64,000 nt of DNA from Lachnospiraceae bacterium (GCA_017520155.1 JAFXGR010000047.1:5095-69094); one strand, 5' to 3'. Shown: positions 10,685 through 48,896, counted from the stretch's first letter. The notes: generated by a model not told the origin, from the sequence alone. Numbers and translations are program-made.

Positions 10685-10719
10685 AAACTTAAACTCAGAA
10701 GTTGAGAAAGGAGGAGCCT

Positions 10720-23644: not shown

Positions 23645-25405
23645 ATGTACGCACCTGTAGTATTATTTGTTTATAATAGAAAAGATCATATGAAACAAGT
23701 ATTGGATGCACTGCAAAGGAATAGCCTTGTGGAAAATACCGATCTTTATATTTTCTCAGATGCTGCCAAGAATGTATTCGAAACTGAAAAAGTCAAAGAA
23801 GTCAGGCAGTATTTAAAAGATTTTAAGAAGAATAATGGTTTTAAGACAGTAACAATTATTGAAGCAAGAGAAAATAAGGGATTGGAAAAATCTATTATTA
23901 CAGGTATAACACAGGTGATGGATCAGTATGGAAAAGCCGTTGTACTGGAGGATGATATTCTGACATCGGAAGACTTTCTGACTTTTATGAATCAGGCTCT
24001 TGAATATTATGAAAAAGATAACAAAGTCTGGTCTGTTTCGGGATATACCATAGACAGTAAAAAAATCAGGAGATATAAAAGAGACGTATTTGTAGGAGAA
24101 AGAGCTTCCTGCTGGGGATGGGCAAGCTGGAAGGACAGATGGGATAAAATAGATTGGGAAGTGAAAGATTATAATATTTTCAGGGAAAATAAAAAAATGC
24201 GAAAAGCCTTTAACAAGGGTGGAGCGGATATGTCTAATTTACTGGATCTTCAACAAAGGGGGGAAGTAAATTCCTGGGCAATTCGCTGGTGTTATCAACA
24301 GTTTAAAGAAGGAATGGTTACTGTATTTCCAAAGCTTTCAAAGGTGAATAATATAGGGGTTGATGGTTCCGGAACCAATTGTGGAAATCATAAGATTTCT
24401 TCTCAGATATTGGGAAAAGAAGCAAATTGGAATTTTGAATATGATTTGAATGACAGGATTTGTTTTAATGAGTTTCGGAAGATGTATTCATTATCATATT
24501 TAAGGCAAAGAGTTGGATATTATTGGTATAAAATGCTGGATTATAAAAGTTGCATTGCTTATAGAAAAAAAGAGATGGGAGAGTTATCTTATATAGGTTT
24601 AAATGGCTTTCAAAGTATAGAAGAACCCAAAATATTTACGTGGAATAATGAGACTTATGTCTTTATGACAGAAAATGATAGAATTAAACGTAGGAAATGT
24701 ATAAGTGTGATGAAGATTGAAGGACAGGCAAAGGGCTTATCATCTAAGGTTGTGCTTAATAAATTTAAAAACATGTCATTTCCCAATATTTTTACCATTA
24801 ATCACGGAGTATTTATGTTACCTAATATTAATGAAGTTAAAGTACTTATACTGTATAAGATGGGAAATACACCATACGAGTGGGAGGAATATTATAGATT
24901 CCCGCTAGAATATAATCTTGTAAATACTATTAAGATAAAGGATGAAGAAGAAGGGGGGGTATTTTATGGGAATCGAATAGAAAACTCGGGGAAAATAAAA
25001 TCTATAATATTTCGAATTTCTAATATTGTATCAAAAGAAAATATTCATTTGGATATTATGGAATGTAATTATGATTTGTTAAAAAATGAAAATATAAGTA
25101 ATTGTTACAATAGGGATAATTATTACTACTTAATAAGAAGAAGTAATGATGAAAAAAAACAAACGAAGTATATGATAAAGATAAAGATTGATGAAATATA
25201 CAGTAATTCCACGAATGAAGTGAGTTTAGAGAAAATTGATGTAAAGAATTTTCCGTTCAATTTGAAACCATTCATATATAGAATACAGGGGATAGTTGAC
25301 TATGTAGAAAATGATGATTGGGAGGTAATAGAATTAAATTTACAGAATATTAATTTAAAAGGGTATATATATAAAATACTGAATTATATGAACAATGATA
25401 AATAA
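23645..25405 (+). CDS. Two-domain protein: N-terminal GT-A (GnT-I/GT13-like EDD motif) glycosyltransferase plus an uncharacterised C-terminal domain
   Basis: VVLFVYNRKDHMKQVLDAL..DLYIFSDAAKN and VVLEDDILTSEDF resemble the GnT-I-type EDD signature. The C-terminal ~290 aa (IEEPKIFTWNNETYVFMTE, SFPNIFTINHGVFMLP, LYKMGNTPYEWEE) resemble a beta-propeller-like accessory domain seen in some transferases. Confidence 0.5.
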   Translation: MYAPVVLFVYNRKDHMKQVLDALQRNSLVENTDLYIFSDAAKNVFETEKVKEVRQYLKDFKKNNGFKTVTIIEARENKGLEKSIITGITQVMDQYGKAVVLEDDILTSEDFLTFMNQALEYYEKDNKVWSVSGYTIDSKKIRRYKRDVFVGERASCWGWASWKDRWDKIDWEVKDYNIFRENKKMRKAFNKGGADMSNLLDLQQRGEVNSWAIRWCYQQFKEGMVTVFPKLSKVNNIGVDGSGTNCGNHKISSQILGKEANWNFEYDLNDRICFNEFRKMYSLSYLRQRVGYYWYKMLDYKSCIAYRKKEMGELSYIGLNGFQSIEEPKIFTWNNETYVFMTENDRIKRRKCISVMKIEGQAKGLSSKVVLNKFKNMSFPNIFTINHGVFMLPNINEVKVLILYKMGNTPYEWEEYYRFPLEYNLVNTIKIKDEEEGGVFYGNRIENSGKIKSIIFRISNIVSKENIHLDIMECNYDLLKNENISNCYNRDNYYYLIRRSNDEKKQTKYMIKIKIDEIYSNSTNEVSLEKIDVKNFPFNLKPFIYRIQGIVDYVENDDWEVIELNLQNINLKGYIYKILNYMNNDK

Positions 25406-25426
25406 ATGGGGTGTTTTAAGAACGTA

Positions 25427-26392
25427 ATGATAAAAATATCTATAGTAGTACCTGTGTATAATGTTGAAAAATATATTAAAAAATGTATTGATAGTCTCTT
25501 GGAACAAAATTTTGATGATTATGAAATTATAATTGTTAATGATGGAACAAGAGATAATTCCATGGATTATGTAAGGCAAGTACAGAAGAAAACAGATAAA
25601 ATAATTATTTATGAACAGGAGAATGCGGGATTAAGTGCAGCCAGAAATTCCGGTATAAGGTTAGCTAGAGGAAAATATATATTATTTTGTGACAGTGATG
25701 ATGCTCTTGTGCAGAATTGTTTGTTAAAGCTTTATAATGAAATGGAAGCCAACAATTTGGACTTGTTAATATATGATGCTGAGCTTCGTTATGAAAACGA
25801 AAAAAGTACACATGATAATCTTTACAACAGACCTAATATATGTGAGGATATTATTAGTGGTAAAGAAATGTTGTCATCACTACTTAAAGATGGCTATTTT
25901 TTAGCATCATCATGCTTGTATATTGTTCAAAGAGAGATTCTTATTAAAAATGGATTGCGGTTTGAAGAAGGTATTTTGCATGAAGATGAACTTTTTACAC
26001 CGATTCTATTACTTTACTCGGAAAGAGTAAAGCACAAAAATTGGATGATATATCAACGATATATACGTGAAGGATCGATAATGACAGGACGTAATCTGGT
26101 GAAAAGAATGATGGGCTTAAAAATTGTGATTCTAAAACTTATCGATTATACCAACTATAATAAGTTAGATAAAGTAGAGATATATTCTCTCAGGGTATTA
26201 ATAAAAAGGCATATAAGACATTTTTTGGCTCAAGCGTTATTGTTAAAATATAAAGGGATTGACTTAAAAGATGAAAGAGGTATGATTTATAAGGCTATAA
26301 TGGAGAACAAATTAGCACTTGGGGTAAAATTTTGGATGTATTTATGCTGTTTGAAAGTTCGTTATATGATTTATGGAATAAAGGAGGATTAA
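25427..26392 (+). CDS. GT2 glycosyltransferase
   Basis: ISIVVPVYNVEKYIKKCIDSLLEQNFDDYEIIIVNDGTRDNS, CDSDD. The alternative start is 25406. Confidence 0.9.
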   Translation: MIKISIVVPVYNVEKYIKKCIDSLLEQNFDDYEIIIVNDGTRDNSMDYVRQVQKKTDKIIIYEQENAGLSAARNSGIRLARGKYILFCDSDDALVQNCLLKLYNEMEANNLDLLIYDAELRYENEKSTHDNLYNRPNICEDIISGKEMLSSLLKDGYFLASSCLYIVQREILIKNGLRFEEGILHEDELFTPILLLYSERVKHKNWMIYQRYIREGSIMTGRNLVKRMMGLKIVILKLIDYTNYNKLDKVEIYSLRVLIKRHIRHFLAQALLLKYKGIDLKDERGMIYKAIMENKLALGVKFWMYLCCLKVRYMIYGIKED

Positions 26393-26393
26393 A

Positions 26394-27587
26394 TTGCATA
26401 TCGTATATGTTACCCCAGAGTTTGAAACTGAAAAAAAAGGTGGAGGACTGGCTAGTTATATTGCAAATATTAGCAGAGTTCTTGTGCAAAATGGTCACAA
26501 GGTTACAATAGTAGTATCTTCTGAAAAGAATAATGATAGTATTATTTGGGATAAAGGAATTGTTGTTGAAAGAGTAGTTAATCAAGGGATAAAGTTGCCG
26601 GTTCCTTTTTATAAAATTTATAAAAGCTGGAATTTACATAGAAGAGTTTGTAAAGTAGTGAGAGAGAATAAGGCTGATCTCATTCAATATGCCAGCTATG
26701 ATTCTGTTGGATTTTTTAAAGTAAAAAAAGTACCTTCCGTAGTCAGAATTTCTTCTGATTGTGTTATGTGGCGTGAGCTGAAATTTTATGATACTAAAAA
26801 GGAAGATTTAAATAAATTATGTTTGACTGATAAGATAGAGTATCTCTCCATTAGAAACAGTGAATATATCTTTGGACCAAGTAAGGCTATTGGTGAGCTA
26901 ATAGAAAAAAGAGTGGGTAAAAGAGTTACCGTGATTGAGTCGCCTTTTTTTATTAAGAAGATAGATTATAATTATGAGATTTATGATAAACTTTTACAGG
27001 GGAAAAAATATTACCTCTCTCATTCTTCTATGTCCTGTTTAAAAGGAACACATATAATTGCTGAAGCAATTCAGGAAGTATGCAAAGAAGACAAAAGTGC
27101 ATATTTTGTCTTCGCAGGAAGTGACCATGGCATTTTTTATAAAAATGGAAAGGTAGTTTCAGTAAAAGACTATATTCTTGAAAAAGCGGGAGCATTTGCT
27201 GATAAAGTTATATTTTTGGGTACATTATCAAGAGAAGAACTTTATCCTGTTATTGAAAGAGCATATGCCTGCTTAATGCCTTCAAGAGCTGATAATATGC
27301 CTAATACATGTATTGAAGCTATGGCACTTGGTGAAATTGTTATTGGTACAAATGGAGCCAGCTATGAGCAGTTAATTGAAGACAAGAAAAGTGGCCTTTT
27401 AATTGATATTGATGATGTAAAAGGAATGGTTGAAAGGATACAAATGGTAAATCGGATGAATGATAGACAAAGATTAGAGTTAAGTAATAATGCAAAAGAG
27501 GTTACGAAACGATTTGCTCCGGAAAAAGTTTATCAAAGCTTAATAAACTATTACGATAGTGTAGTAAAGGAATGGAACGGTAAGTGA
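26394..27587 (+). CDS. GT4 glycosyltransferase
   Basis: HIVYVTPEFETEKKGGGLASY, ADNMPNTCIEAMALGEIVIGTNGASYEQLIEDKKSGLL. TTG start 6 nt after AGGAGG. Confidence 0.85.
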   Translation: MHIVYVTPEFETEKKGGGLASYIANISRVLVQNGHKVTIVVSSEKNNDSIIWDKGIVVERVVNQGIKLPVPFYKIYKSWNLHRRVCKVVRENKADLIQYASYDSVGFFKVKKVPSVVRISSDCVMWRELKFYDTKKEDLNKLCLTDKIEYLSIRNSEYIFGPSKAIGELIEKRVGKRVTVIESPFFIKKIDYNYEIYDKLLQGKKYYLSHSSMSCLKGTHIIAEAIQEVCKEDKSAYFVFAGSDHGIFYKNGKVVSVKDYILEKAGAFADKVIFLGTLSREELYPVIERAYACLMPSRADNMPNTCIEAMALGEIVIGTNGASYEQLIEDKKSGLLIDIDDVKGMVERIQMVNRMNDRQRLELSNNAKEVTKRFAPEKVYQSLINYYDSVVKEWNGK

Positions 27588-29362
27588 GTAAGATAATTAC
27601 AAGTTTTAAAGATATTTTAACGAAAATGTCCTATATTTTGACTGTGAAACAAAAGAAATATTGTTTGGTGGTATTTTTGATGACACTTGTAGGAGTTTTG
27701 CTTGAGACGTTAGGAGTATCAATTATATTGCCGCTGGTTCAAGCAATGCTTTATCCGGAACAAATTTTAGAAAATAAAATTTTAGGAAAGATATTTTTCA
27801 GTTTAAAAATTCAGGATAGTTTTTTCATGGTTCTAATCATTGCAGCTTTTGTTGTAATGATCTACCTTCTTAAAAATATATATCTGGTCTACCTTTCCTA
27901 TGTTAGAGCAAAATTTTCAGGAAATATACAACGAAGTTTGGGACTATATATGATGAAGTCTTATTTAAAAAGGGGATACCCCTTTTTTCTGAAAGAAAGT
28001 GCTCACAAATTACATAGGGGTATCACTGGAGATGTATCAGGTGTCTACAATATTATTTATAATGGATTTCGTATGATATCAGAATGTCTTACTGCCTTTG
28101 CAATAGGTGTATATATTTTAATGTCGGATTTTTTGATGGCTATTGTTATATTGATTATAGCAGGAACAACAGTGATGATTACAATGCTGATCAGTAAAAG
28201 TAAAATGCGGTCATATGGACAGAAATATAGAATATATGATACGAAAATGAAAGCCTGCTCCTATCAAACTTTTCATGGAATAAAAGAAGTTCTTGTAATG
28301 AATAAAGAAGAATATTTTATCAATGAGTATAAGGAATCTTGTAAAGAACAGCAAAAAGCACTGGTGGGACAAACTGTATTTGCAGAAGCACCTGCATTTG
28401 TTTTTGAAGCAGTTTGTGTGATTGGTATGATTTTAGCAGTTTGTTTCAGGTTGGCACTTGATGGAAATAGTCCGGAATTCGTATCAAATATAGCAGTTTT
28501 TGTGGTGGCTGCATTTCGAATTATGCCGTCACTGGGAAGAATTGCTAATGCTGCAAATATTATTATGTTTAATATACCGTCTATGAATGCTGCATATATG
28601 AATCTTCTTGAGGCAAACGGATACACTTATCATTTACAAATTGGAGAAGAGGTAGAAGAAGAGGTTGTATTCAAAGAAGAGGTTAAACTATCGGATATAT
28701 ATTGGAAGTATGAGGATGCGACAGATCCTGTTATTAGGAATCTTAATTTAAGTATAAAAAAAGGTAGTTCTATAGCATTAATAGGAGAATCAGGTGCGGG
28801 TAAATCTACTTTGGCTGATATGGTATTAGGTTTATTAAAACCATTTAAAGGTGTAATTGAAATAGATGGCATAGATATAAATACAATACCGAGACAATGG
28901 CATAAAATTATAGGTTACGTTCCGCAGTCAGTATATATCTTAGATGATACTATTAGAAAGAATGTTGCCTATGGTATCTTGGAAGAAGATATTGATGATA
29001 GTTTAGTATGGAAAGTATTAGAACAGGCACAGCTAAGTGATTTTGTGAAAAGGTTACCGGAGCAGTTAGATACAATCTTGGGAGAACGAGGCATAAGATT
29101 TTCTGGTGGACAACGCCAAAGAATTGCTATAGCAAGATGCTTGTATCATGAACCTGAAATATTAGTTTTAGACGAAGCTACATCTGCTTTGGATAATAAG
29201 ACTGAAGAGGCAATTATGGAAGCGATTGAATTGCTTAGAGGATATAAAACATTAATAATTGTGGCACATAGATTGACTACGATTAAGGAATGTGACTATA
29301 TATACGAAATTAAAGATGGAAAAGCAATTGAACGAAATAAGGAAGAAATTTTTTTAGAATAA
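27584..29362 (+). CDS. ABC exporter, fused permease-ATPase half-transporter (MsbA/PglK/Wzk type), copy 2
   Basis: GESGAGKST, FSGGQRQRIAIARCL, ILVLDEATSALD, IIVAHRL. The N-terminal TM domain has the LETLGVSIILPL opening shared with copies 1 and 3. Confidence 0.9.
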   Translation: MSKIITSFKDILTKMSYILTVKQKKYCLVVFLMTLVGVLLETLGVSIILPLVQAMLYPEQILENKILGKIFFSLKIQDSFFMVLIIAAFVVMIYLLKNIYLVYLSYVRAKFSGNIQRSLGLYMMKSYLKRGYPFFLKESAHKLHRGITGDVSGVYNIIYNGFRMISECLTAFAIGVYILMSDFLMAIVILIIAGTTVMITMLISKSKMRSYGQKYRIYDTKMKACSYQTFHGIKEVLVMNKEEYFINEYKESCKEQQKALVGQTVFAEAPAFVFEAVCVIGMILAVCFRLALDGNSPEFVSNIAVFVVAAFRIMPSLGRIANAANIIMFNIPSMNAAYMNLLEANGYTYHLQIGEEVEEEVVFKEEVKLSDIYWKYEDATDPVIRNLNLSIKKGSSIALIGESGAGKSTLADMVLGLLKPFKGVIEIDGIDINTIPRQWHKIIGYVPQSVYILDDTIRKNVAYGILEEDIDDSLVWKVLEQAQLSDFVKRLPEQLDTILGERGIRFSGGQRQRIAIARCLYHEPEILVLDEATSALDNKTEEAIMEAIELLRGYKTLIIVAHRLTTIKECDYIYEIKDGKAIERNKEEIFLE

Positions 29363-29375
29363 AGGAGAAAATCAT

Positions 29376-30038
29376 ATGAAAATTAAAGCATTAGTTGCAG
29401 TAAGATCCGGCTCAGTAAGAGTAGAGAATAAAAATATTAAACCATTTGCAGACAGTACATTGTTAGATGTGAAACTTCAGCAGTTAAAAAGGATTCCAAA
29501 TCTGGATGGTATTGTTGTGAACTCTAATTCGAATGAAATGCTGGAGATTGCAAAGAAATATGGCTGTGAGACAGTAAAAAGAGATGAGTACTATGCTTCT
29601 AATTCAGTATCTATGAGTGAAGTATACAGGAACATGGCAGAAAACTTTTCGGCAGATGTAGTAGCATATATCAATGTAACTAATCCTTTATTGAAAGATG
29701 AAAGTATTGTTAAGGCCATTGAAGTATATAAAGAATCAGTTCAGACAGGAGAATTTGATTCTTTAAACTCCGCGCATTTAATTAAAGAATTTATGTTTCA
29801 AGATAATAGACCAATTAACTATGATTTAAAAAACCAGCCAAGAAGTCAGGATCTACCGGATATATCTGCTCTTAATTTTGCCATAAGTATTATCTCAAAA
29901 GAGAAAATGATCTCATGTAAAAATGTAGTGGGAGAGAAACCTAATATCTATTTAATTGATGAGATAGAAGCAACAGATATTGATAATCCGATTGATTTTG
30001 AATTTGCAGAATTTGTATATAAAAAAGGACAATGGTAA
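29376..30038 (+). CDS. Acylneuraminate (CMP-ulosonic acid) cytidylyltransferase family protein, NeuA/SpsF-like
   Basis: ALVAVRSGSVRVENKNIKPFADSTLL, GIVVNSNSNEMLEIAKKYGCE and YINVTNPLL are colinear with the CTP_transf_3 pattern (ARxGSKxxxxKN ... TSP). Confidence 0.75.
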   Translation: MKIKALVAVRSGSVRVENKNIKPFADSTLLDVKLQQLKRIPNLDGIVVNSNSNEMLEIAKKYGCETVKRDEYYASNSVSMSEVYRNMAENFSADVVAYINVTNPLLKDESIVKAIEVYKESVQTGEFDSLNSAHLIKEFMFQDNRPINYDLKNQPRSQDLPDISALNFAISIISKEKMISCKNVVGEKPNIYLIDEIEATDIDNPIDFEFAEFVYKKGQW

Positions 30039-30039
30039 A

Positions 30040-31152
30040 ATGCAGATTATATTTTTAACATCATCTCCTCTTCATAAGATGCACTTTAATGATTTGTATA
30101 TTGATGAACTTAGTGAACGTTTTGATACAGAAATCTGGGATGTAAGTGATTTATATGGAAGAGGAAGGGATAATAAGGAGTTTCCGCAGGTAAAGCGCAT
30201 CTTTACTAAGGGAGAATTAGAGATATGTATTTCTGGGATAAAGCAAAAGACAGTTGTGATAACAAACATCTTAATCTTTGATTTATACTTGGTAAAGCCT
30301 CTTTTTGAAAAGAAAAAAATTCCTGTGGTATCGATAGATAAGGAGTCTATCATTTTTTGGATGAGGGATAATTTCTTGAAAAGAAATCCTCAGTATGCAA
30401 GTGAGGCAGACCATAAGAAATTTTTTTGGAAATCATTTTTTTTGACAAGAAAGATTTACAGTTATCTGGAATACCGTCATATGAAATATGATTATATGTT
30501 TGGAGCCTATAATTATTTTCCGGAGGCTTCGAAGAGGTTTATCAAAATTCATAATCTGAAATATGATGAGTACCTAAAGAGTGAGCAGGAAGATAGAGTT
30601 TTAGACTATGAATATATTCTTTTTATGGATGCAGGACTGGCTCATTTGCCGGCGGTATCAGGGAAACCCAATTCAATTGATCAAAACGATTATGTAAAAG
30701 CGATGAATTATTTGTTCGAAGAACTGGAAAAAAAATATAATTTGCCAGTTGTTATTGCTGCACATCCGAAATCAGGATATGAAGAAGAAACCTTTAATGG
30801 TCGTGAAATTATTCTTTATAAAACACCTGAATTATTAAAATATGCAGAACTGGTATTGGCACATTATTCTACTTCTTTAATTGATTTAGTTTTACAGAAA
30901 AAACAAGTACTGTTTCTTTATTCAGAAGAATATATGGATTCCTGCTCTCGGACGATTTTAATTACTACAAGAGAATATGCAAAAATGTTAGGAGCACCAT
31001 TACTGGATATAAAAGATTTTTCTCTAGAAAAGATAGAAATTAAGATTAATGAAGAAATGTATGATTCTTTTATACAAGACCATATTTTAAATAGAGAATT
31101 TATATCCAGTACAAATGCCCAATTAATAGAAGATTTTTTGAAGAAAATTTAA
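30040..31152 (+). CDS. Uncharacterised protein, candidate CMP/CDP-donor GT-B transferase (HP motif)
   Basis: It starts 2 nt after the cytidylyltransferase stop. VVIAAHPKSGY followed by AHYSTSLIDL resembles the HP and S-S motifs of bacterial sialyltransferase and TagF-type enzymes. Weak, motif-level only. Confidence 0.3.
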   Translation: MQIIFLTSSPLHKMHFNDLYIDELSERFDTEIWDVSDLYGRGRDNKEFPQVKRIFTKGELEICISGIKQKTVVITNILIFDLYLVKPLFEKKKIPVVSIDKESIIFWMRDNFLKRNPQYASEADHKKFFWKSFFLTRKIYSYLEYRHMKYDYMFGAYNYFPEASKRFIKIHNLKYDEYLKSEQEDRVLDYEYILFMDAGLAHLPAVSGKPNSIDQNDYVKAMNYLFEELEKKYNLPVVIAAHPKSGYEEETFNGREIILYKTPELLKYAELVLAHYSTSLIDLVLQKKQVLFLYSEEYMDSCSRTILITTREYAKMLGAPLLDIKDFSLEKIEIKINEEMYDSFIQDHILNREFISSTNAQLIEDFLKKI

Positions 31153-31159
31153 TTGAAGA

Positions 31160-31190
31160 GAGCTGATACGATGTATCAGCTCTTATAATA
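31160..31190 (+). terminator. Hairpin, possible weak intrinsic terminator
   Basis: AGAGCTGATAC (31160-31170) pairs with GTATCAGCTCT (31174-31184), 8 nt after the stop. The downstream T-tract is poor (TATAATAATT). The 12-mer ATCAGCTCTTAT is repeated at 31203-31214. Confidence 0.4.
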
Positions 31191-31273
31191 ATTATAATAA
31201 TAAATCAGCTCTTATGGCTCAAAGTGTTTAAATTAAGGTGGAAAATAGATAGTAGATTGGTGAGAGGTTTCAA

Positions 31274-32410
31274 ATGAGAAATTTATTATATAGCGTAGAA
31301 AAAATGGTAGCATTTCCTGTAGTTGAAGTATGGGACAGAGTAACGCCTATGAGAGTTATAAGTAAGATAGCTGAGTGGCATAAATTAGAAAAAATTCATC
31401 CTTATGGAAACCCAGAATGTATAAGAAAAGAACGAGAGTGGAACGAGAATGACAAAATTCAATTAAGTCTGATTTGCCCCTTATATAATTCTGAAATTTA
31501 TCTAGAAACATTATTACCATGTTTATTAAAACAAGAAACAGAATATGGGTATGAAATAATCTTTGTGGATGATGGATCAAAAGATAGTGCTTTTGCAGTT
31601 ATTAAAAGCTATTGTGAAAAATATCCTGAGAAAATTAGCATAATAAAGCAGGAAAATATGGGAATTGCAGAAGCGCGAAATACAGGAATAAATTATGCAA
31701 AAGGAAAATATATAGGATTTATAGATCATGATGATATGATTAAAAAAAATTATGTACAAAAACTTTTAGAAACTGCAATAGCAGAAGATGCAGATATTGT
31801 AAAATGTGCCATTGAAGAAATAGAAGAAGGAAGAGTTGTAGCAAGCAGCAGTAAGGAGTATATGAATATTTCCGGTGCTATGAAAGATGAACTTTTGACC
31901 AGTATAGGGTATGTATGGGGCGGAGTTTATAAGAGAGAACTGTTTAACAGAGTATCATTTCCTAGAGGATATTGGTATGAGGATATGATTGGAAGAAGCC
32001 TTTTAAAAAGACAGAGTAAAAAATATATTCAGCTTTCAGATGTACTATATATAAAAGTGAGAAGTGAAAATAATGCTTCAAGAAAAATATGGTCAAGCAA
32101 AGAATATAAATGTCTGGAGCAGTTGTACCTTGTAAAAGAGATTATTTCCGCAAATGAAGAGTTAAAGTTAGGAAAAGACGTGTACTTTTACAAGGCTCTT
32201 TTGAAAGAATGTTCTAAAACACTGGCAGGCAGAATTCAGGGATTGAGGGTTGGAGACAGAAAGATTGTTTTATATTGTGTAAGTGATCTAATGAAAGAGC
32301 TGTGGAAAGAAGAATACGATATAATTCTGAATAAAAAAGAACGTTTGTGGAATAAGGCAATGCTTAGAAATAATTTTTTGATATGGACTTTTTTGAATAT
32401 GGTGTATTAG
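31274..32410 (+). CDS. GT2 glycosyltransferase with ~60-aa N-terminal extension
   Basis: LSLICPLYNSEIYLETLLPCLLKQETEYGYEIIFVDDGSKD, IDHDD. Confidence 0.85.
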   Translation: MRNLLYSVEKMVAFPVVEVWDRVTPMRVISKIAEWHKLEKIHPYGNPECIRKEREWNENDKIQLSLICPLYNSEIYLETLLPCLLKQETEYGYEIIFVDDGSKDSAFAVIKSYCEKYPEKISIIKQENMGIAEARNTGINYAKGKYIGFIDHDDMIKKNYVQKLLETAIAEDADIVKCAIEEIEEGRVVASSSKEYMNISGAMKDELLTSIGYVWGGVYKRELFNRVSFPRGYWYEDMIGRSLLKRQSKKYIQLSDVLYIKVRSENNASRKIWSSKEYKCLEQLYLVKEIISANEELKLGKDVYFYKALLKECSKTLAGRIQGLRVGDRKIVLYCVSDLMKELWKEEYDIILNKKERLWNKAMLRNNFLIWTFLNMVY

Positions 32411-32461
32411 AATAATACAAACATATAGAAATCAATTTTTGTCATGAAAAGAAAGGAATTT

Positions 32462-34033
32462 ATGAAAAACATATATTTATTAGACTGTACTCTGCGTGAC
32501 GGTGGCTATATAAATGATTGGAATTTTGGAGAAGAAGCAATTCGCGGAATATGCAGAAAATTGGAACTTACGGGAATTGAAATCATAGAGATTGGATTTA
32601 TGAGAGGAGATACTTATAATCCGCAATATTCTTTGTTTCCTGATGCGGAGTCTATGAAAAATATTATAACTCCTAAGAAAAAAGAGTGTATGTATGTTGC
32701 TATGTTGGATATGTCAGATCCGGTTCCACTGGAACGGATACAACCTTATGATGGAACGTCCATAGATGGTATACGAGTAATCTTTAAAAAAGATAAGATA
32801 GAAGAGGCATATACATATTGTGAAAAAATTCAAGCCTTGGGATACAAATTGTTTGTTAATTTTGTTGGTACAGATAATTATTCTGACATTGAATTTGTGG
32901 AAGGTATTAATAAGTTCAATAAAATGATGCCTTATGGAATTGCTATTGTAGACAGCTTTGGTCTGATCAAGAGAAAACAGTTCCTAAGATATGCGTATTT
33001 GGCAGATAATAACATGGAAGAAAATATTATACTCTGTTATCATGCACATAATAATCTTCAGCAAGCCTTTGGTAATGCCGAAGCATTGGTAGAAATGAAT
33101 TTAAGAAGAAAAATATGTATTGATGCTTGTGTTTATGGAATGGGAAGAGGAGCAGGGAATTTAAATCTTGAATTGTTTGCAGAACATTTAAATGAAAATT
33201 ATGGAACACAGTATAGAATTGAGCCTATGTTGGAGATTATGGATGAGTATTTAAATGAAATTCATCAGACAAGATATTGGGGATATTCATTGCCACTATA
33301 CTTATCCGCAGCTACAGGTTGTCATCCAAATTATTCGATTTATTTTGAAGAGAAGGGAACTTTGTCGGTAAAATCATTCAATGAACTTTTAAAATCAATT
33401 CCAGAAAAAGAAAAGGCAGTTTTTTCAAAAGAAAGGGCAGAAAAGTATTATAAAGAATACCAGGAAAATTTTGTGGATGATAAAGAAACTCTGGAAAAAT
33501 TAAAAGTTCTTACCGAAAGACCAATTTTGATTTTGGCACCGGGCCATAGCCTTAAAGAATATAAAACAATAATAGAAGATAAAATCTGTGAAATGAACCC
33601 TATTGTGATTTCTATTAATTTTGAAGGGTATCCGTTTAAGGCTGAATATGTTTTCTGCAGTAATATGCGAAAATTTTCTAAGATTAAAGAAGAATACAAG
33701 AAGAAATGTATTATAACATCGAATATTAAAAAGCATTATGATACAAGTATTGTGATTAATTTTTCTTCCTACACATCAAGAAGAGAAGAAATAGTGGATA
33801 ATGCAGGTATTATGTTGTTGAATCTTCTAATTACACTTGGGGTTAAAGAAGTAACAATTGCAGGTATGGATGGTTATATGTTGAATAATATTTCAAATTA
33901 CTATGAAGAAAAGAGGAGTAACGGAAAAATGGAGATAGAGGAAATAAGGAATGTTTTAGTGTCAGAAGAACTGTCAGAGATTAAAAAAGTTTTAAATATG
34001 AAATTTCTTACTCCAACAATGTATAAGTTATAG
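32462..34033 (+). CDS. Fusion protein: DRE-TIM/HMGL-like aldolase domain plus C-terminal DUF115 (MptE/Maf)-like domain
   Basis: The N-terminal YLLDCTLRDGGY and CYHAHNNLQQAFGNAEA (HxH metal site) are typical of HMGL-like pyruvate-utilising TIM barrels. The C-terminal ILILAPGHSLKEY ... NAGIMLLNLLITLGVKEVTIAGMDGY resembles the DUF115 core. The alternative start is 32444. Confidence 0.6.
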   Translation: MKNIYLLDCTLRDGGYINDWNFGEEAIRGICRKLELTGIEIIEIGFMRGDTYNPQYSLFPDAESMKNIITPKKKECMYVAMLDMSDPVPLERIQPYDGTSIDGIRVIFKKDKIEEAYTYCEKIQALGYKLFVNFVGTDNYSDIEFVEGINKFNKMMPYGIAIVDSFGLIKRKQFLRYAYLADNNMEENIILCYHAHNNLQQAFGNAEALVEMNLRRKICIDACVYGMGRGAGNLNLELFAEHLNENYGTQYRIEPMLEIMDEYLNEIHQTRYWGYSLPLYLSAATGCHPNYSIYFEEKGTLSVKSFNELLKSIPEKEKAVFSKERAEKYYKEYQENFVDDKETLEKLKVLTERPILILAPGHSLKEYKTIIEDKICEMNPIVISINFEGYPFKAEYVFCSNMRKFSKIKEEYKKKCIITSNIKKHYDTSIVINFSSYTSRREEIVDNAGIMLLNLLITLGVKEVTIAGMDGYMLNNISNYYEEKRSNGKMEIEEIRNVLVSEELSEIKKVLNMKFLTPTMYKL

Positions 34034-34218: not shown

Positions 34219-35742
34219 CTACTTGACAGCAATCTCAAAGTTTGTTGTTTGATGGATTCTATATTGGCTCTTATCCAGCTTTGCCTTATGAACAATCGCT
34301 GTTTGAGCTTCTCCGGCAACACCCCATAGAATGTCAGCTTCACCAATTTGGGAATAGTCATTGGAATATTCCTCGATAAATGTAATGTCAGAATAACCAT
34401 AAAAATGCTCTAAATAAGCTTTACAGGATATATCAAATTCTCCATATTCCTGAGAAGAACATAATATGATTTTAGAATCTGTTGAATAGTTACTTGTAAT
34501 ATCAGACACAATTTCTTGAAAATTCTCTGATTGTAAAGTGAATGCCTTGGCATCATTTGGGATATGCCAAGAGATATATAGTATAAACACAATAAGAGCT
34601 TGCGTATAACAAAATTTTACACGATACTGATTCTTGAAATAGCGATATCCCATAATAATTGTAAGATAGCCAACTCCAAAAACAAAAGGTAACAAATAGC
34701 GTTCATAAATACCAATTTTTGCGTAAGTAACCAATTGAGTTGACATAATATAAGCACAAAAAATTAATTCTAAAAAGAAAGATAGGTTCAAAACTTTTTT
34801 TGAGCAAATAAGTTGAAAAAAGAGGAAAAACAATATTATAAGAATCAGATAAGGAAAACAAGTTCTTCTGAGAGAAGTATAGATTCCTTCTAAATAAACG
34901 CTAATGTGATCACTAGCACTGAAACCGGCGTAACCTATAGAGTTGGTTCCTACATATTTTAAAATAATAAAGGACTCAATCAATAAGGTAATAATTGTGC
35001 ATATAATATTTCCTAGGAAATAATGAAAAAAGAGCTTAACATTTTCAATAAAGTTATTTTTTGATAAAGTGTCTTTAAAAGTAAAAATAAATAATAGAAG
35101 AAAGAAGGCTGGGACACAAACTAAAAAGCATTCTTTCTGCAATGAAAGAAGCAATAATGAAAAATAGAAAAACACCTTATTCAACAAACTTCTATTATTT
35201 GCCAGGTTATAAGTAAGAAGTAAACTCAAAGAAAAGAACAAAGTTCCCACACCTTCCTGAGGACCAAGACGCCATATTACTGCAGATTGTCTGCCTAGAA
35301 TAATTAAAGCACAAAAAAACAATGAGAAAAAGCGACTGACTCCCATTTTTCGAGCAAAAACATAGTTTAGTGAAGAAGCGGTAGAAATGATAACCGCATT
35401 TTTTAGTGCAATAATTCCAAAATGTTCGATAAACAGGATAGAGTCCAAGGAACGAAAAAAGGACCATAGCGGGCGGAAACGAATAGAGAGATCATTTTTC
35501 ATAAATTGAAGAATACCTCCCCATATGCCATAAGCAGATATATGCCGCTGAATTTTAATGTAGTCCTGATCATCCTGTAAATGATAGCCGGAAAATAACG
35601 TACCCATTTTATCAAGAAAGAGAACAAGAAAAATAGTAAATGAAGTCCAAATAATCAGATACTCTAATGTTTGACGCGATATACTGAAATTCAAGTAGGG
35701 ACATTTTATATCATCTGAATGTAAATCTCTCTGGGGTTTCAA
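34219..35742 (-). CDS. Polytopic membrane protein, GT-C-like (paralog family B, inverted copy)
   Basis: FLDKMGTLFSGYHLQDDQDY, RFRPLWSF and WRLGPQEGVG are shared with the protein at 60886-62415, as is the C-terminal QYRIHQTTNFEIAVK. Confidence 0.55.
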   Translation of the reverse strand: MKPQRDLHSDDIKCPYLNFSISRQTLEYLIIWTSFTIFLVLFLDKMGTLFSGYHLQDDQDYIKIQRHISAYGIWGGILQFMKNDLSIRFRPLWSFFRSLDSILFIEHFGIIALKNAVIISTASSLNYVFARKMGVSRFFSLFFCALIILGRQSAVIWRLGPQEGVGTLFFSLSLLLTYNLANNRSLLNKVFFYFSLLLLSLQKECFLVCVPAFFLLLFIFTFKDTLSKNNFIENVKLFFHYFLGNIICTIITLLIESFIILKYVGTNSIGYAGFSASDHISVYLEGIYTSLRRTCFPYLILIILFFLFFQLICSKKVLNLSFFLELIFCAYIMSTQLVTYAKIGIYERYLLPFVFGVGYLTIIMGYRYFKNQYRVKFCYTQALIVFILYISWHIPNDAKAFTLQSENFQEIVSDITSNYSTDSKIILCSSQEYGEFDISCKAYLEHFYGYSDITFIEEYSNDYSQIGEADILWGVAGEAQTAIVHKAKLDKSQYRIHQTTNFEIAVK

Positions 35743-39790: not shown

Positions 39791-39823
39791 ATGTTTTAAT
39801 GAAGAGAGGAAAGAGAGAAATTG

Positions 39824-40876
39824 ATGTATGTTAACGGGAATGAAAGCTCTGAGTTAGGGATAATTAATATTATAAAAGCCATTGGTATCCTTCTTGTCAT
39901 CTTTGGACATGCTATTCAATATGCTTCAGGAGAGCAGGTGTTAAGCAGTGGACTATTTTTTGAGGATTTTCTTTTCAAATTTATCTATAGCTTTCATATG
40001 CCTCTGTTTATGCTTGTAAGCGGATATTTATTTTACAATACAGTAGAAAAATATCAGGGAAAGCAGCTTCTTTTAAATCGATGGCATCGACTGGCACAGC
40101 CAATTTTGGTATGGGCCTTTTTCCCATTTATGGAGTTAGTACTAAAAAGAGATAAGATTACTATCTTGAATGTGATAAAAAGTCTGATTCGGGCGGTGAT
40201 TCTGAATCCTTGGTTTTTATGGGCAATATTATTATCTTCTATGGCAGTAGTCGTTGTGAATAAATTTTTTAAAGATAATAAGTTGATATATTTTTTGGGG
40301 TTTTTGTTGATATTTGTGATACCTGATCAGTATAATCTTCATTTGTATAAGTATATGTATCCCTATTTTGTATTAGGATATCTTTTTAACAAGAATATAA
40401 GATGGCAGAATACTTTTTCTTTACGAATCAGATCTGGGAGGATATACGGAGTTCTACTTACCATATTCTACTTTATTTTATTATCGGTTTATTCAAGAGA
40501 TGCCTATATTTATGTTTCAGGAATTACATTACTGGGAAAGAACTACGAGTATCAGCTTTTGATTGATTTATATCGTTTTTTAATCGGATTTGTAGGAAGT
40601 CTTTGGATTATATGGATTTCAACAAAAGTAGCAAATCAAATCCCAAAGAAGGTAATGATAGCAGTTGATTATCTGGGGAAATATTCTATGGGATTCTATT
40701 TGATCTCCGGTGTTATTTTTTCTTATATAGTATCACCCCTTACAAGAGAGATAGAGGGGATTAATTACTTGTTTGTAACAGGAATCTCTATCATTGTTAC
40801 TTTGAGTTGTGTTATGCTCATAGAGATTATTAAAAAGAATCATTTATCGAATAAACTATTCCTGGGAGGGCGTTAG
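39824..40876 (+). CDS. Acyltransferase family 3 membrane O-acyltransferase
   Basis: IIKAIGILLVIFGHAIQY (conserved His in TM1), about 10 TM helices, size ~350 aa. Confidence 0.75.
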   Translation: MYVNGNESSELGIINIIKAIGILLVIFGHAIQYASGEQVLSSGLFFEDFLFKFIYSFHMPLFMLVSGYLFYNTVEKYQGKQLLLNRWHRLAQPILVWAFFPFMELVLKRDKITILNVIKSLIRAVILNPWFLWAILLSSMAVVVVNKFFKDNKLIYFLGFLLIFVIPDQYNLHLYKYMYPYFVLGYLFNKNIRWQNTFSLRIRSGRIYGVLLTIFYFILLSVYSRDAYIYVSGITLLGKNYEYQLLIDLYRFLIGFVGSLWIIWISTKVANQIPKKVMIAVDYLGKYSMGFYLISGVIFSYIVSPLTREIEGINYLFVTGISIIVTLSCVMLIEIIKKNHLSNKLFLGGR

Positions 40877-40942: not shown

Positions 40943-42808
40943 GTGGAACGTTGTTTTATTTTAAATACCGGGATTCATGTAACTAACATGGAAGAAGTAT
41001 TAGAAGCTTTGGAACAAAATATTGAGAAAAAAAAGGGAGATTATATCTGTGTGGCCAATGTCCATACTACGGTTATGGCCTTTCGTGATCCTAGCTATTG
41101 CGAGATACAGAATAACAGCTGGTTGACTTTGCCGGATGGGAAACCTCTATCCATTGTCAGTAGAAAGCGTGGTTATTTGAAAGCAAAGCGGGTAGCAGGA
41201 CCGGATTTAATGCCAAAGGTATTTGAACTTTCAAAGGAAAAGGGATATCGACATTTCTTTTATGGTAGTACAGAAGAAACTCTGGAAAAGCTAAAGCATA
41301 AGATTAGTAAGAAATATCCTTATCTTCAAGTCGCAGGTATGTATTCCCCTCCTTTTCGAAAGCTGGAAGAAAAAGAAGATCAGGAAATCATTGAAAGAAT
41401 CAATGACACAAAGCCGGACTTTGTGTGGGTAGCCTTGGGAGCACCTAAGCAGGAAATCTGGATGGCAGAGCATGAAAATAAGGTAAAGGGAATCATGATT
41501 GGCGTAGGGGCAGCTTTTGATTTTGAAGCAGGAACCGTAAAAAGGGCTCCCCAGTGGATGCAGGAGCTGTGTTTGGAGTGGTTTTATCGTTTAATGAAGG
41601 AACCAAGACGATTGATCAAACGATATGTGGAAACCAATGCCACCTTTTTATGGGAAACTTATCGGGAAGGGAAGCAACTGAAGAAGAGAAAAGACTGTAA
41701 GAAGATTGCTATGATAGGTCATAAAAGAATCCCTTCCAGAGAAGGCGGTGTGGAAATTGTTGTTTATGAATTATCTAAAAGAATGGTAGACCTGGGGTAT
41801 CGGGTAGATGCCTATAACAGACGGGGAAGTCATGTGGCCGGGAAAAAATTTGTTAATCAGATTGGAAAAGTACATCAGGGAATCCGGATTTTGTCCATTC
41901 CAACCTTTGAAAACGGAAAACTGAATGCTATTGTTTATTCTTTTCTTGCAACGTTGAGAGCTTTGTTTGGAAGATATGATATAATTCACTACCATGCTGA
42001 AGGCCCCTGCAGCGTGCTTTGGATTCCAAAACTATTTGGAATACGTTGTGTGGCCACTATTCACGGTCTTGACTGGCAGAGAGCTAAATGGGGAGATTTT
42101 GCAACCAAAGTTTTGAAATTTGGAGAAAAAATGGCAGCAAAATATGCGGATGAGATTATTGTTCTTTCAGAAAATGTACAGAATTATTTCATGGAAACCT
42201 ATGATCGTAATACTAAATTTATTCCCAATGGAATTACCCGTCCGGAAAGAAAAGAAATACAGGAAATAAAAGAACGGTGGGGACTGGAAAAGGACGGATA
42301 CATTTTATTTTTGGCCAGAATTGTTCCGGAAAAAGGAATTCATTATCTGATAGAAGCTTATCAGAGAATTAATACAGAGAAAAAACTTGTAATTGCAGGA
42401 GGAAGAAGTCATTCTACAGATTATTTTGAAAGTTTAATTTCTATGGCAAACGGTAATGAAAATATTATATTTACAGATTTCGTAGGTGGAAGGGTACTGG
42501 AGGAATTGTTTTCTAATGCTTACTGCTTTGTGTTGCCCAGTGATGTTGAAGGCATGTCTATCGGTTTGTTGGAAGCTATGAGCTATGGAAACTGCTGTTT
42601 GGTCAGTGATATAAAAGAAAATGCAGAAGTAGTGGAGGACAAGGGAGAATTATTTCTTCATTCCAATGTAGACAGCCTGGAAGAAAAACTGAGAAAACTT
42701 TTGGAACATTCGGAAGTGGTAGATAAGTATAAAAGAGAAGCTTGCGATTATATTTGTCAGAAATATAGCTGGGAAAAAGTTGTGGAAGAAACATTGAAAC
42801 TTTATTAG
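40943..42808 (+). CDS. Fusion: GT26 (WecG/TagA/CpsF) domain plus GT4 domain with a DUF1972-like N-terminus (RgpA/WchF-type)
   Basis: GT26: CVANVHTTVMA, LPDGKPL, VALGAPKQEIWM, GVGAAFDFEAGTVKRAPQWMQELCLEWFYRLMKEPRRL. GT4: IAMIGHKRIPSREGGVEIVVYELSKRM and DVEGMSIGLLEAMSYGNCCLVSD. GTG start after AGGGGAAAA. Confidence 0.8.
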   Translation: MERCFILNTGIHVTNMEEVLEALEQNIEKKKGDYICVANVHTTVMAFRDPSYCEIQNNSWLTLPDGKPLSIVSRKRGYLKAKRVAGPDLMPKVFELSKEKGYRHFFYGSTEETLEKLKHKISKKYPYLQVAGMYSPPFRKLEEKEDQEIIERINDTKPDFVWVALGAPKQEIWMAEHENKVKGIMIGVGAAFDFEAGTVKRAPQWMQELCLEWFYRLMKEPRRLIKRYVETNATFLWETYREGKQLKKRKDCKKIAMIGHKRIPSREGGVEIVVYELSKRMVDLGYRVDAYNRRGSHVAGKKFVNQIGKVHQGIRILSIPTFENGKLNAIVYSFLATLRALFGRYDIIHYHAEGPCSVLWIPKLFGIRCVATIHGLDWQRAKWGDFATKVLKFGEKMAAKYADEIIVLSENVQNYFMETYDRNTKFIPNGITRPERKEIQEIKERWGLEKDGYILFLARIVPEKGIHYLIEAYQRINTEKKLVIAGGRSHSTDYFESLISMANGNENIIFTDFVGGRVLEELFSNAYCFVLPSDVEGMSIGLLEAMSYGNCCLVSDIKENAEVVEDKGELFLHSNVDSLEEKLRKLLEHSEVVDKYKREACDYICQKYSWEKVVEETLKLY

Positions 42809-47141: not shown

Positions 47142-48896
47142 ATGGAACGAATAAAGACCTTTTTTAAGAAAATTAACTATATTTTTGACAGTACAGAAAA
47201 AATAAAGTTTTTGATCTTATTGCTTGGAATACTGTTAACAACTATTTTGGAATTGGTTGGTGTTGTTGCAATTATGCCATTTATCAATGTAGTTATGGAT
47301 CCTTCTTCTATCCAAAAAACGTCCTATCTCAAATGGTTATATGAGTTATTAAAAGTGACGAATGTAAATACTTTTATTGCCTTTCTGGCAGGAGTTTTAA
47401 TAGTGGTTTATGTGGTTAAAAACTTTAGTTTAATTTTATTGTATTATGTACAATATGCATTTACCTTTAGTAGCCAAAAAAAGTTATCAACCCGTATGTT
47501 ACAATGCTATATGCAACAGCCATATTCATTTCATTTGCAAAATAATAGTGCAGATTTAATGAGAAACATAGAATCTGATGTTACAATGATGTTTCAGGCA
47601 ATTATGTCTATGCTGGGACTTTTGGCTGAATTGTGCGTGTGCCTTATTTTGGGTGCCTATTTGGTCATAAAAGATAAATCCATAGCAATTGGTATGGTGT
47701 TAATCTTAGGATTATTTGTTTTAACATTTGCAAAGCCTTTCAAAAGATATCTCACAAGAATTGGTGGGGAAGACAGAGTATATCGTGCAGGAATTACAAA
47801 ATGGCTTCACCAGTCTTTAGGCGGAATTAAGGAGACAAAGATATTAGGAAGAGAAGAGTATTTTTGTAATAAATTTGATGATAATTATTGCAGTTGGTCT
47901 GAAAGAGAAAAAAAATATAGATTGTTGCAAGTTGCACCAAGACCAGTTATGGAAACGGTTTGCATCTTTGCTTTACTCAGTGTAATTATTATAAAGTTAT
48001 TAAACGGTACATCCAGTGCGTATTTTGTTACAACGGTATCCGTCTTTGCAGTAGCAGCTTTTCGATTATTACCTTCAATTAATCGTATTACTTCAAGCTA
48101 TGGGGTGATTATGTTTAATTTGCCTGCCTTTGATGCCATATATCATGACTTGAAAGAAATTGAAGAGTTAAACAGTTTAAGTAATTTAGAAGAAAAGAAA
48201 AGTGAACATCTGATTTTCAATGATTCAATTTCATTAGAAAATGTTTCCTTTTCCTATCAGGGAAAAGAAGATAGTGTGCTGGAAAATATTTCTCTTACCA
48301 TAACAAAGAACCAGGCAGTTGCCTTTGTAGGACCCTCCGGAGCGGGAAAAACCACCTTGGTAGATATTATACTGGGTATCTTAAAGCCTATAAAAGGTCG
48401 TGTATTAGTGGATGGAGAAGATATTGCAAAGCATCAAAATGGCTGGAGAAAAAATCTGGGATATATTCCTCAAAGTATTTATTTGATGGATGATACAATT
48501 CGCAACAATATTCTCTTTGGACAGGAAATGGAGGATGAAAAAAAGCTTTGGAAAGCAGTGGAGGAAGCCCAGTTAAAAGACTTCATTGAAACCTTGGAAA
48601 ATGGAATTGACACGGTCATTGGAGAAGATGGAATCTGTCTTTCCGGAGGGCAAAGGCAGAGAATCGGGATTGCCAGAGCATTATATACTAACCCCAGTGT
48701 TTTAGTGTTGGATGAGGCTACCTCTGCACTGGATAATGAAACAGAGTCAGCAGTTATGGACGCCATCAATTCTTTAACAGGAACAAAAACATTGATTATT
48801 ATTGCTCATCGTTTATCTACTACAGAGCAGTGTGATGTAATCTTTGAAGTGAAAGAAAAAGGCATTGTTAAACTGGAAAGTCATTCTGAAAAATAA
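47142..48896 (+). CDS. ABC exporter, fused permease-ATPase half-transporter (MsbA/PglK/Wzk type), copy 3
   Basis: GPSGAGKTT, LSGGQRQRIGIARAL, VLVLDEATSALD, IIIAHRL. Confidence 0.9.
   Translation: MERIKTFFKKINYIFDSTEKIKFLILLLGILLTTILELVGVVAIMPFINVVMDPSSIQKTSYLKWLYELLKVTNVNTFIAFLAGVLIVVYVVKNFSLILLYYVQYAFTFSSQKKLSTRMLQCYMQQPYSFHLQNNSADLMRNIESDVTMMFQAIMSMLGLLAELCVCLILGAYLVIKDKSIAIGMVLILGLFVLTFAKPFKRYLTRIGGEDRVYRAGITKWLHQSLGGIKETKILGREEYFCNKFDDNYCSWSEREKKYRLLQVAPRPVMETVCIFALLSVIIIKLLNGTSSAYFVTTVSVFAVAAFRLLPSINRITSSYGVIMFNLPAFDAIYHDLKEIEELNSLSNLEEKKSEHLIFNDSISLENVSFSYQGKEDSVLENISLTITKNQAVAFVGPSGAGKTTLVDIILGILKPIKGRVLVDGEDIAKHQNGWRKNLGYIPQSIYLMDDTIRNNILFGQEMEDEKKLWKAVEEAQLKDFIETLENGIDTVIGEDGICLSGGQRQRIGIARALYTNPSVLVLDEATSALDNETESAVMDAINSLTGTKTLIIIAHRLSTTEQCDVIFEVKEKGIVKLESHSEK

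Follow-up and report, generated by a model that had tools for sequence, protein, structure and literature searches.

To our knowledge, all characterised routes to ulosonic acids activated with cytidine monophosphate (CMP), namely those of 3-deoxy-D-manno-octulosonic acid (Kdo), N-acetylneuraminic acid (Neu5Ac), legionaminic acid (Leg), pseudaminic acid (Pse) and 2-keto-3-deoxynononic acid (Kdn), begin with a phosphoenolpyruvate (PEP)-dependent synthase of the NeuB or KdsA type. We also know of no described biosynthesis for short-chain acids such as the hexulosonic acid of the Escherichia coli K3 capsule. Hexulosonic acid is a short-chain constituent of this capsule (PMC10433991; bioRxiv 10.1101/2025.01.29.635457). 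Here a locus is described from a 64,000-nucleotide stretch of DNA of Lachnospiraceae bacterium (GCA_017520155.1 JAFXGR010000047.1:5095-69094; hereafter the window), in which a NeuA-like cytidylyltransferase (gene A), an unmodelled GT-B protein with an HP motif (gene B) and a fusion of a pyruvate-aldolase barrel with a DUF115-like domain (gene D) lie together on the plus strand. The reading that we favour, with slightly less than even confidence and from the genes alone, is that they would form a make-activate-transfer module that puts an aldolase-made acidic keto-sugar on a cell-wall glycopolymer exported by an ATP-binding cassette (ABC) system.

With the NeuB/NeuC/NeuA pathways (Neu5Ac, legionaminic and pseudaminic acids) and the KdsA/KdsC/KdsB pathway the module has in common a CTP_transf_3 enzyme, a candidate HP-motif GT-B protein and the make-activate-transfer logic. 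Unlike them, it has no PEP-dependent synthase or NeuC, and its candidate synthase is a metal-dependent DRE-TIM pyruvate aldolase. Literature searches found nothing that joins a cytidylyltransferase, an aldolase and DUF115, nor anything that joins 4-hydroxy-2-oxovalerate aldolase with a cytidylyltransferase and a polysaccharide, or DRE-TIM with ulosonic acids. An earlier note on this DNA had outlined such a pathway, and all the genes and motifs that it named are present where it placed them.

The candidate synthase, gene D (32462..34033, plus strand), encodes a protein of 523 aa, the length also found in public gene calls, which Pfam and a structure model present as an aldolase-DUF115-like fusion. 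Two in-frame ATG codons (32444-32462) are available at its start, the second of which, at 32462, has an AAAGGA ribosome-binding site upstream. Residues 1-252 (32462..33217, plus strand) correspond to a DRE-TIM (HMGL-like) class II pyruvate-aldolase barrel by comparison with PF00682 and the PDB entry 3dxi. Residues 10-251 match PF00682 with an E-value of 5.4e-17 and 62.5 bits, above the cutoff of 29, and the motifs DCTLRDGGY and YHAHNN are present. R12, D13, H194 and H196 are invariant in 29 homologues, and the metal and pyruvate site is therefore intact. The proposal that the N-terminus of D is a DRE-TIM/HMGL-like pyruvate aldolase was thus borne out by the PF00682 check and the intact metal ligands. 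The nearest PDB sequence is 3dxi (2.7e-25), the N-terminal domain of the putative aldolase BVU_2661 of Bacteroides vulgatus, followed by 4-hydroxy-2-oxovalerate aldolases of the DmpG/BphI type. A Foldseek search with the whole model, in which the barrel dominates, returned 3dxi, 1nvm, 4lrs, 4jn6 and 8ih7. In the predicted model the barrel is followed by a helical region (residues 253-339; 33218..33478, plus strand) with helices at 254-336, and the alignment with 3dxi reaches residue 323.

The window contains 49 open reading frames (ORFs) of at least 150 aa. Of these, 48 were scanned with Pfam, and the one at 39821-40876 was read from public gene calls as an Acyl_transf_3 protein. The scans revealed no NeuB, no Epimerase_2 (NeuC) and no synthase of the 3-deoxy-D-arabino-heptulosonate 7-phosphate type, and phmmer searches of the six-frame translation of the window with NeuB and Epimerase_2 seeds from a Pedobacter locus gave no match. 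The two approaches agree with the earlier observation that neither a NeuB-type synthase nor a NeuC-type epimerase is encoded here, and together they also found no KdsA-type PEP-dependent synthase in the 64 kb. Likewise, no thiamine diphosphate (ThDP) enzyme and no RfbF, RfbG or RfbH occurs in the window, and PEP mutase, phosphonopyruvate decarboxylase and the acylating aldehyde dehydrogenase that partners DmpG are absent from the ORFs scanned.

DmpG/BphI and 3dxi resemble D in the TIM barrel, the R-D...H-x-H metal/pyruvate site and the helical domain after the barrel, and LRDGGY is common to 3dxi and D. Unlike DmpG, D has Tyr in place of the His of LRDG-x-H, and its score against the DmpG equivalog TIGR03217 (59.8 bits) lies far under the cutoff of 286. 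Also unlike DmpG/BphI, it is without a partner dehydrogenase, and its setting is biosynthetic glycan assembly, not aromatic catabolism. A catabolic meta-cleavage aldolase of the DmpFG/BphIJ kind was ruled out because the partner dehydrogenase is lacking and the neighbours are all glycan genes. Phosphonate tailoring by an FrbC-type HMGL-like enzyme together with a cytidylyltransferase, two terms found jointly in a single paper (bioRxiv 10.1101/2021.04.07.438883), was ruled out as well, given the lack of PEP mutase and phosphonopyruvate decarboxylase noted above.

Gene A (29376..30038, plus strand) encodes a protein of 220 aa that matches CTP_transf_3 (PF02348) with an E-value of 2e-19 and 70.7 bits, above the gathering cutoff of 22.6. 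It aligns end to end with CMP-sialic acid synthetases of the PDB, the closest being PpNeuA (9t4z, 1.8e-12), followed by 1qwj and 1eyr, and the aligned regions include the N-terminal R/K loop and the C-terminal DIDxxxD motif. The segments AVRSGSVRVENKNIKP and ATDIDNPID of A match the corresponding segments of 9t4z and 1qwj; we take the former to be the Arg/Lys nucleotide loop and the latter the D-x-D metal motif. These results uphold the view of A as a NeuA-like activator of the ulosonic-acid type. The scores against PseF (TIGR03584, 68.3 bits, cutoff 205.7) and against the KdsB models (at most 34 bits, cutoffs 193-281) are under the respective cutoffs, and with the alignment to CMP-sialate synthetases this places A, as judged from its sequence, as a predicted NeuA-like enzyme whose specificity the family models do not define. 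Orthologues 74-87% identical to A are found in two other loci (L085, L040).

Gene B (30040..31152, plus strand), which starts one base past the stop codon of A, encodes a protein of 370 aa defined by its predicted fold and its conservation. Its start is ambiguous: an ORF finder places it at a TTG codon at 29980 and public calls give 384 aa, while the homologues start at the ATG at 30040 (370 aa). B gave no Pfam or NCBIfam match even at E<=1 and no match in a plasmid collection, and 68 homologues were found among 5.8 billion proteins. It carries the segments VVIAAHPKS and HYSTS. Among 33 homologues, down to 21% identity, F195, D197, H242 and P243 are invariant and H275 and S277 nearly so. The AlphaFold model (pLDDT 94.5, pTM 0.89) has two Rossmann-like domains. 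Foldseek matched it to GT1 glycosyltransferases and UDP-GlcNAc 2-epimerases with a TM-score of 0.4-0.53, and the best 50 matches, with E-values from 2.5e-8 to 1.6e-6, are all GT-B proteins.

The functional motifs of bacterial sialyl- and nonulosonate transferases include HP and D/E-D/E-G, and HP, the CMP-binding motif of the sialyltransferases, is also found in the Pse/Leg transferases of Tannerella (PMC5420450). In B the HP motif is present (H242, P243) and no D/E-D/E-G motif is clear; F195-x-D197 is the invariant acidic motif. With HP-motif sialyltransferases and the Tannerella forsythia Pse/Leg transferases, B thus has in common the GT-B fold, the HP motif, a CMP-nonulosonate gene neighbourhood and a Ser/Thr-rich motif about 35 residues past HP. 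Unlike these sialyltransferases, it shows no detectable homology to the Pfam glycosyltransferases and no evident D/E-D/E-G, and has 370 instead of about 445 aa. In a set of 90 loci with relatives of B (L085-L174), CTP_transf_3 occurs in 66, NeuB in 40 and Epimerase_2 in 23. In Pedobacter hartonius the relative of B lies 3' of a complete cluster of the legionaminic-acid type, and some other relatives sit between Wzx and Wzy. This co-occurrence with CTP_transf_3 and NeuB, together with fold and motif, makes B a likely CMP-ulosonate glycosyltransferase, the transfer itself being predicted. The family, of about 370-400 aa and ranging from Firmicutes to Bacteroidota (Pedobacter), looks like an unrecognised ulosonate/nonulosonate transferase family. 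The HP and S-S-like motifs pointed out before thus proved to be conserved features of a predicted GT-B fold with CMP-ulosonate genes as neighbours.

The link between D and the A-B pair rests on arrangements of A-B-D or CTP_transf_3-D in at least seven divergent loci, all without NeuB. The order is A-B-D in L094, where D is 66% and B 61% identical to the window proteins, and B-A-D in L086, a compact Wzx/Wzy locus in which B, A and D are only 36%, 28% and 39% identical to those of the window. The order B-HMGL-A is found in L098, and an orthologue of A (74%) occurs with D in one locus, L040. In L019, L052 and L066, CTP_transf_3 directly precedes the fusion, with an overlap or a gap of at most about 60 nt. 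The order in L019 is CTP_transf_3, the fusion, a KdsC-family phosphatase (TIGR01670, 152.9 against a cutoff of 106.95) and then a ThDP enzyme, so that the KdsC-family phosphatase stands beside the synthase slot, a likeness to KdsA/KdsC/KdsB. By analogy, this layout mirrors the KdsB-synthase-KdsC pattern, with the aldolase apparently in the position of the synthase.

In L040 (2454-7337) the orthologue of A is followed by three proteins without Pfam matches, of 723, 511 and 381 aa, the first two rich in hydrophobic segments. Between this trio and the fusion there are a short-chain dehydrogenase/reductase, a hexapeptide acyltransferase and an FrhB-like Fe-S protein. The intervening genes may be alternative transferase or tailoring genes. 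The proteins upstream of CTP_transf_3 in L052, L066 and L040 were considered as homologues of B and rejected; they also have no Pfam match.

In the proposed pathway, D would use a divalent metal bound by D13, H194 and H196 to form the enolate of pyruvate and add it to an aldehyde. The product would be a 4-hydroxy-2-oxo acid, that is, a 3-deoxy-2-ulosonic acid, for which a C6 acid resembling 2-keto-3-deoxygluconate (KDG) or a phosphorylated precursor is a candidate. A, to judge by its family, would then attach CMP at the anomeric C2-OH of the acid in its cyclic form, and B, as context, fold and motif suggest, would pass the acid from this donor to the elongating glycan, for export by the adjacent ABC system. 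The DUF115-like domain of D would be of a nucleotide-binding type and tied to the aldol step, perhaps in substrate supply, in pulling the equilibrium or in regulation. This role is placed at the aldol step and not at transfer to the polymer because the domain is present where there is no CMP-sugar, and it is the weakest part of the model. As a whole, the scheme hints at an alternative, NeuB-independent route to sialic-acid-like sugars.

The C-terminal domain of D (residues 340-523 and stop; 33479..34033, plus strand) shows alternating strands and helices in the model and is assigned as an alpha/beta DUF115/MptE-like domain from this model and sub-threshold matches to PF01973. The E-values against PF01973 are 0.0084 to 0.0028 (16.3-17.9 bits), and the gathering score of 34.6 is not reached. 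Among 29 members of the D family 12 match PF01973, the best with an E-value of 0.0017 and none at the gathering score, and other Pfam families match at most two of the 29. A profile search of the PDB with the domain gave no match. The earlier description of this region as DUF115-like therefore stands in so far as PF01973 recurs, and falls short in that the gathering score is never attained. With the Maf/DUF115 flagellin transferases and archaeal MptE the domain has in common the alpha/beta character and a weak, recurrent PF01973 similarity at profile positions 40-165. Unlike Maf/DUF115 proteins, it is about 180 aa long, has no flagellin context, stays below the gathering score throughout and, in the matches listed, lies at or near the C-terminus.

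An exhaustive phmmer search with the C-terminal domain gave 726 representative clusters. In the best 150 of them the domain ends within about 35 residues of the C-terminus and occurs in no other architecture, the proteins being either the fusion, with about 500-545 aa, or shorter and taken as fragments. From these architectures the fusion appears to be old and fixed. A relaxed hidden Markov model search of 174 loci found no stand-alone relative of the domain; a weak match in L096 was a GT2 protein. In the plasmid collection only partial matches to D were found. On a plasmid of Desulfobaculum bizertense (L175, NZ_CP090010.1; 5846-10426), rfbH precedes a split transketolase (a different ThDP enzyme), after which comes the aldolase, apparently in two parts, a 337-aa 'hypothetical protein' and a 145-aa fragment labelled 'glycosyltransferase' by PGAP.

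The D family comprises more than 5,500 homologues. The fusion is found in Clostridia including gut Lachnospiraceae, and in Treponema, Akkermansia, Coriobacteriaceae and Desulfosporosinus, while 3dxi shows a relative of its N-terminal domain in Bacteroides. Eighty fusion loci (L005-L084) were collected, none of them with NeuB or NeuC, and neighbours were counted around the 44 fusion genes that have 5 kb or more of sequence on each side. The neighbour seen most often, directly upstream, is an acetolactate-synthase-like ThDP enzyme of 611 aa. Within 5 kb, a ThDP enzyme is found near 33 of the 44 fusions, RfbF and RfbH near 21 each, a PfkB protein resembling kinases of KDG or 2-keto-3-deoxygalactonate near 15, CTP_transf_3 near three and an IspD-type cytidylyltransferase near one; eight have neither ThDP, CTP_transf_3 nor IspD proteins. 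Genes for NAD-dependent dehydratases/reductases are further frequent neighbours, and the equivalog cutoffs are reached by RfbF (396 bits, cutoff 300) and RfbH (697 bits, cutoff 423). The co-occurrence of the fusion with CTP_transf_3, put forward earlier as a check, is thus rare by this count and nevertheless recurs in the linked arrangements of at least seven loci described above.

The typical cassette (for example in L008, L017, L023, L059 and L069, around 10001-11570) consists of RfbF, a dehydratase, RfbH, the acetolactate-synthase-like ThDP enzyme, the fusion, a reductase and sometimes the KDG-kinase-like protein, and its hosts are Lachnospiraceae, Acutalibacteraceae, Treponema bryantii and Akkermansia. 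A third type of cytidylyltransferase partner, after RfbF and CTP_transf_3, occurs in a metagenome-assembled genome (MAG) of Coriobacteriaceae (L075, 9998-13362), where the fusion is followed by an IspD/TarI-type protein (PF01128, 4e-38) and an NAD-dependent reductase. A weak relative of this protein is encoded in L013 (174-854), some 9 kb away from the fusion.

These cassettes correspond to the described biosynthesis of acyl-branched sugars. In it, a 4-hydroxy-2-oxo acid for glycan building comes from a BphI-like pyruvate aldolase, a YerE-like ThDP enzyme adds the acid to a CDP-3,6-dideoxy-4-ketohexose, and a reductase finishes the product (PMC9306805). The aldolase ErwI, with ErwE (ThDP) and ErwF (reductase), in the scheme for erwiniose, caryophyllose and gastriose has the same role as that expected of D orthologues in the context of their majority (PMC9306805). 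Unlike the Erw scheme, the window lacks a ThDP enzyme and CDP-hexose genes, D carries a fused DUF115-like domain in place of a pairing with an ErwJ/DmpF-type dehydrogenase, and the keto acid would be CMP-activated, not decarboxylated. The window protein is 61.6% identical to the fusion of such a cassette (L008), which most economically suggests such an alpha-keto acid as the product of D. An alpha-keto acid, the product of a pyruvate aldolase, is the one kind of substrate common to ThDP and CTP_transf_3 enzymes. It is possible, although we propose it only tentatively, that one aldolase family in gut Clostridia and their relatives supplies a short 3-deoxy-2-ulosonic acid with no need of a NeuB- or KdsA-type synthase and feeds two routes to chemically distinct decorations, CMP activation followed by transfer through B, or ThDP-dependent decarboxylation and grafting onto a CDP-ketosugar. 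To judge from the spread of the cassettes, acyl-branched sugars like erwiniose or caryophyllose would be common among gut commensals.

Several observations weigh against a dedicated A-B-D module. The A-B pair occurs without D or NeuB in L085, L091, L092, L093, L096, L101 and L103, with flanks of 7-10 kb (shorter at contig ends in L101 and L103), and these loci keep the syntenic GINT1_N/GT2/GT4/ABC block; the neighbourhood of D is thus not obligatory, another locus could make the acid, and A-B is the conserved unit. Proteins orthologous to D, at 55-62% identity, are mostly found beside ThDP enzymes and CDP-3,6-dideoxyhexose (RfbF/RfbH) cassettes, in keeping with the count of 33 ThDP neighbours to three of CTP_transf_3. 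A is under every NCBIfam equivalog cutoff tested (PseF, KdsB, NeuA), the visible genome is limited to 64 kb, so that a canonical synthase may be encoded elsewhere, and the aldol equilibrium with pyruvate is unfavourable if nothing draws the reaction forward. It is accordingly conceivable, if somewhat unlikely, that A and B are an activate-transfer pair for an ulosonic or nonulosonic acid made elsewhere, for example by a flagellin NeuB locus, and that D is unrelated, either feeding an alpha-keto acid to a ThDP carboligase encoded elsewhere or being left over from a branched-sugar cassette. The seven or more D-less loci with the same syntenic block, the RfbF/RfbH/ThDP/fusion/reductase cassettes around the closest D orthologues and the presence of NeuB in 40 of the 90 B-family loci all favour this. 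It is opposed by the lack of any ThDP enzyme, RfbF, RfbG or RfbH within the 64 kb, by the direct adjacency or overlap of CTP_transf_3 and the fusion in five other divergent loci, which by a rough estimate is very unlikely if the genes are unrelated, and by the compact Wzx/Wzy locus L086, whose sole 'special sugar' genes are B, A and D. Of the pathway as first sketched, the succession of aldolase, CMP activation and transfer remains plausible with B as the transferase, whereas D turns out not to be obligatory and transfer by the DUF115 domain is unlikely.

That last idea, in which the DUF115-like domain is a Maf/GT42-like transferase of the CMP-acid and B has another role, is improbable. PF01973 is the sole recurrent Pfam match of the domain, Maf proteins use CMP-Neu5Ac and CMP-Kdo (bioRxiv 10.1101/2020.06.03.131540), and PGAP applied the label 'glycosyltransferase' to the split C-terminal fragment of the Desulfobaculum plasmid. 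Against these stand the scores under the gathering threshold, the lack of a PDB sequence match and the fact that the transferase role already fits B; about 75% of the aldolase fusions have no CMP-synthetase nearby, the sugar being CDP-linked, and because the domain accompanies the aldolase in cassettes without a CMP-sugar, the assignment of polymer transfer to it in the earlier note is not sustained. Quite improbable, too, is that B is a NeuC/PseG-like nucleotide-sugar hydrolase or 2-epimerase releasing the aldose for D, even though UDP-GlcNAc 2-epimerases are among its best Foldseek matches and its sole PDB sequence match, with an E-value of 0.0028 over the HP motif, is CapG of the Epimerase_2 family. 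An hhalign comparison with the Epimerase_2 profile gave 44% probability over 92 columns of the C-terminal domain only, leaving the invariant D/R/E/H of the N-terminal half of the epimerases outside the aligned region, and B as NeuC was ruled out on this basis. True Epimerase_2 genes moreover coexist with B in 23 loci and are not replaced by it, B lies among Wzx, Wzy and glycosyltransferase genes, and an A-B pair without a nearby synthase would make no sense if B were an epimerase. The weak NCBIfam and PDB matches of D to isopropylmalate and homocitrate synthases raise the further idea of a Claisen-type acyl-CoA condensing enzyme (citramalate, homocitrate or isopropylmalate synthase-like) that makes an organic-acid substituent. 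This is very improbable, as D is most similar, in sequence and in structure, to DmpG/BphI-type aldolases and 3dxi, and the ThDP, KDG-kinase-like and KdsC-like neighbours all act on 2-keto-3-deoxy acids.

If the make-activate-transfer reading is true, a pyruvate-aldolase route would represent a second biosynthetic logic for acidic keto-sugars and could account for parts of polysaccharides such as the hexulosonic acid of the K3 capsule. Whichever reading holds, two uncharacterised families stand out, the aldolase-DUF115-like fusion and B. The fusion, with homologues in gut Lachnospiraceae, Treponema, Akkermansia and Bacteroides, is a marker of predicted acyl-branched sugars in commensals, and B is a strong candidate for a new ulosonate/nonulosonate transferase family for which Pfam has no model. 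Both families, and with them a NeuB-independent ulosonate route, thereby become directly testable.

The surroundings of the locus are of the cell-surface glycan type. The genes of the window are almost all on the plus strand, its GC content is low (30-38%), and Logan assemblies hold the same DNA with identical gene order; the closest relatives are MAGs of Lachnospiraceae and other Clostridia. A is preceded by a block (23645..29362, plus strand) that Pfam resolves into a GINT1_N-type protein, GT2, GT4 and an ABC exporter with fused transmembrane and nucleotide-binding domains, and the order of this block ahead of A-B is kept in L091, L093 and L094. Between B and D lies gene C (31274..32410, plus strand), a GT2 glycosyltransferase (PF00535, 5.5e-31), which is not a conserved member of the module because in L094 and L086 it is not found between B and D. 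Pfam further shows many GT2, GT4 and GT11 proteins, a pyruvyl transferase, a WecG-GT4 fusion, a DegT aminotransferase, several large membrane proteins and three such fused ABC exporters in the window. The exporters are MsbA-like and located at 1699-3456, 27584-29362 and 47142-48896. Three proteins are of the GT11 type, and many of the large membrane proteins are of the DUF6056/DUF2142 type. The pyruvyl transferase (9494-10684) adjoins a GH88 protein (10702-11808), and the WecG-GT4 fusion is at 40943-42808. This gene content suggests that several ABC-exported polymers are encoded side by side.

Downstream of D, at 34219-35742 on the minus strand, a 507-aa multi-pass membrane protein without a Pfam match is encoded. 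It is one of only three minus-strand ORFs of at least 150 aa, closes the co-directional block that contains A to D and coincides with a local collapse of the GC skew (0.03 against about 0.25-0.3). A scan for promoter-like sites (57 against 48 expected) and terminator-like sites (1 against 3.2 expected) was uninformative. In L093 (3601-5069) the otherwise syntenic glycan block contains an inserted Thoeris-type defence pair, ThsA (Macro) and ThsB (TIR), which separates the GINT1_N-type gene from the GT2/GT4/ABC genes.

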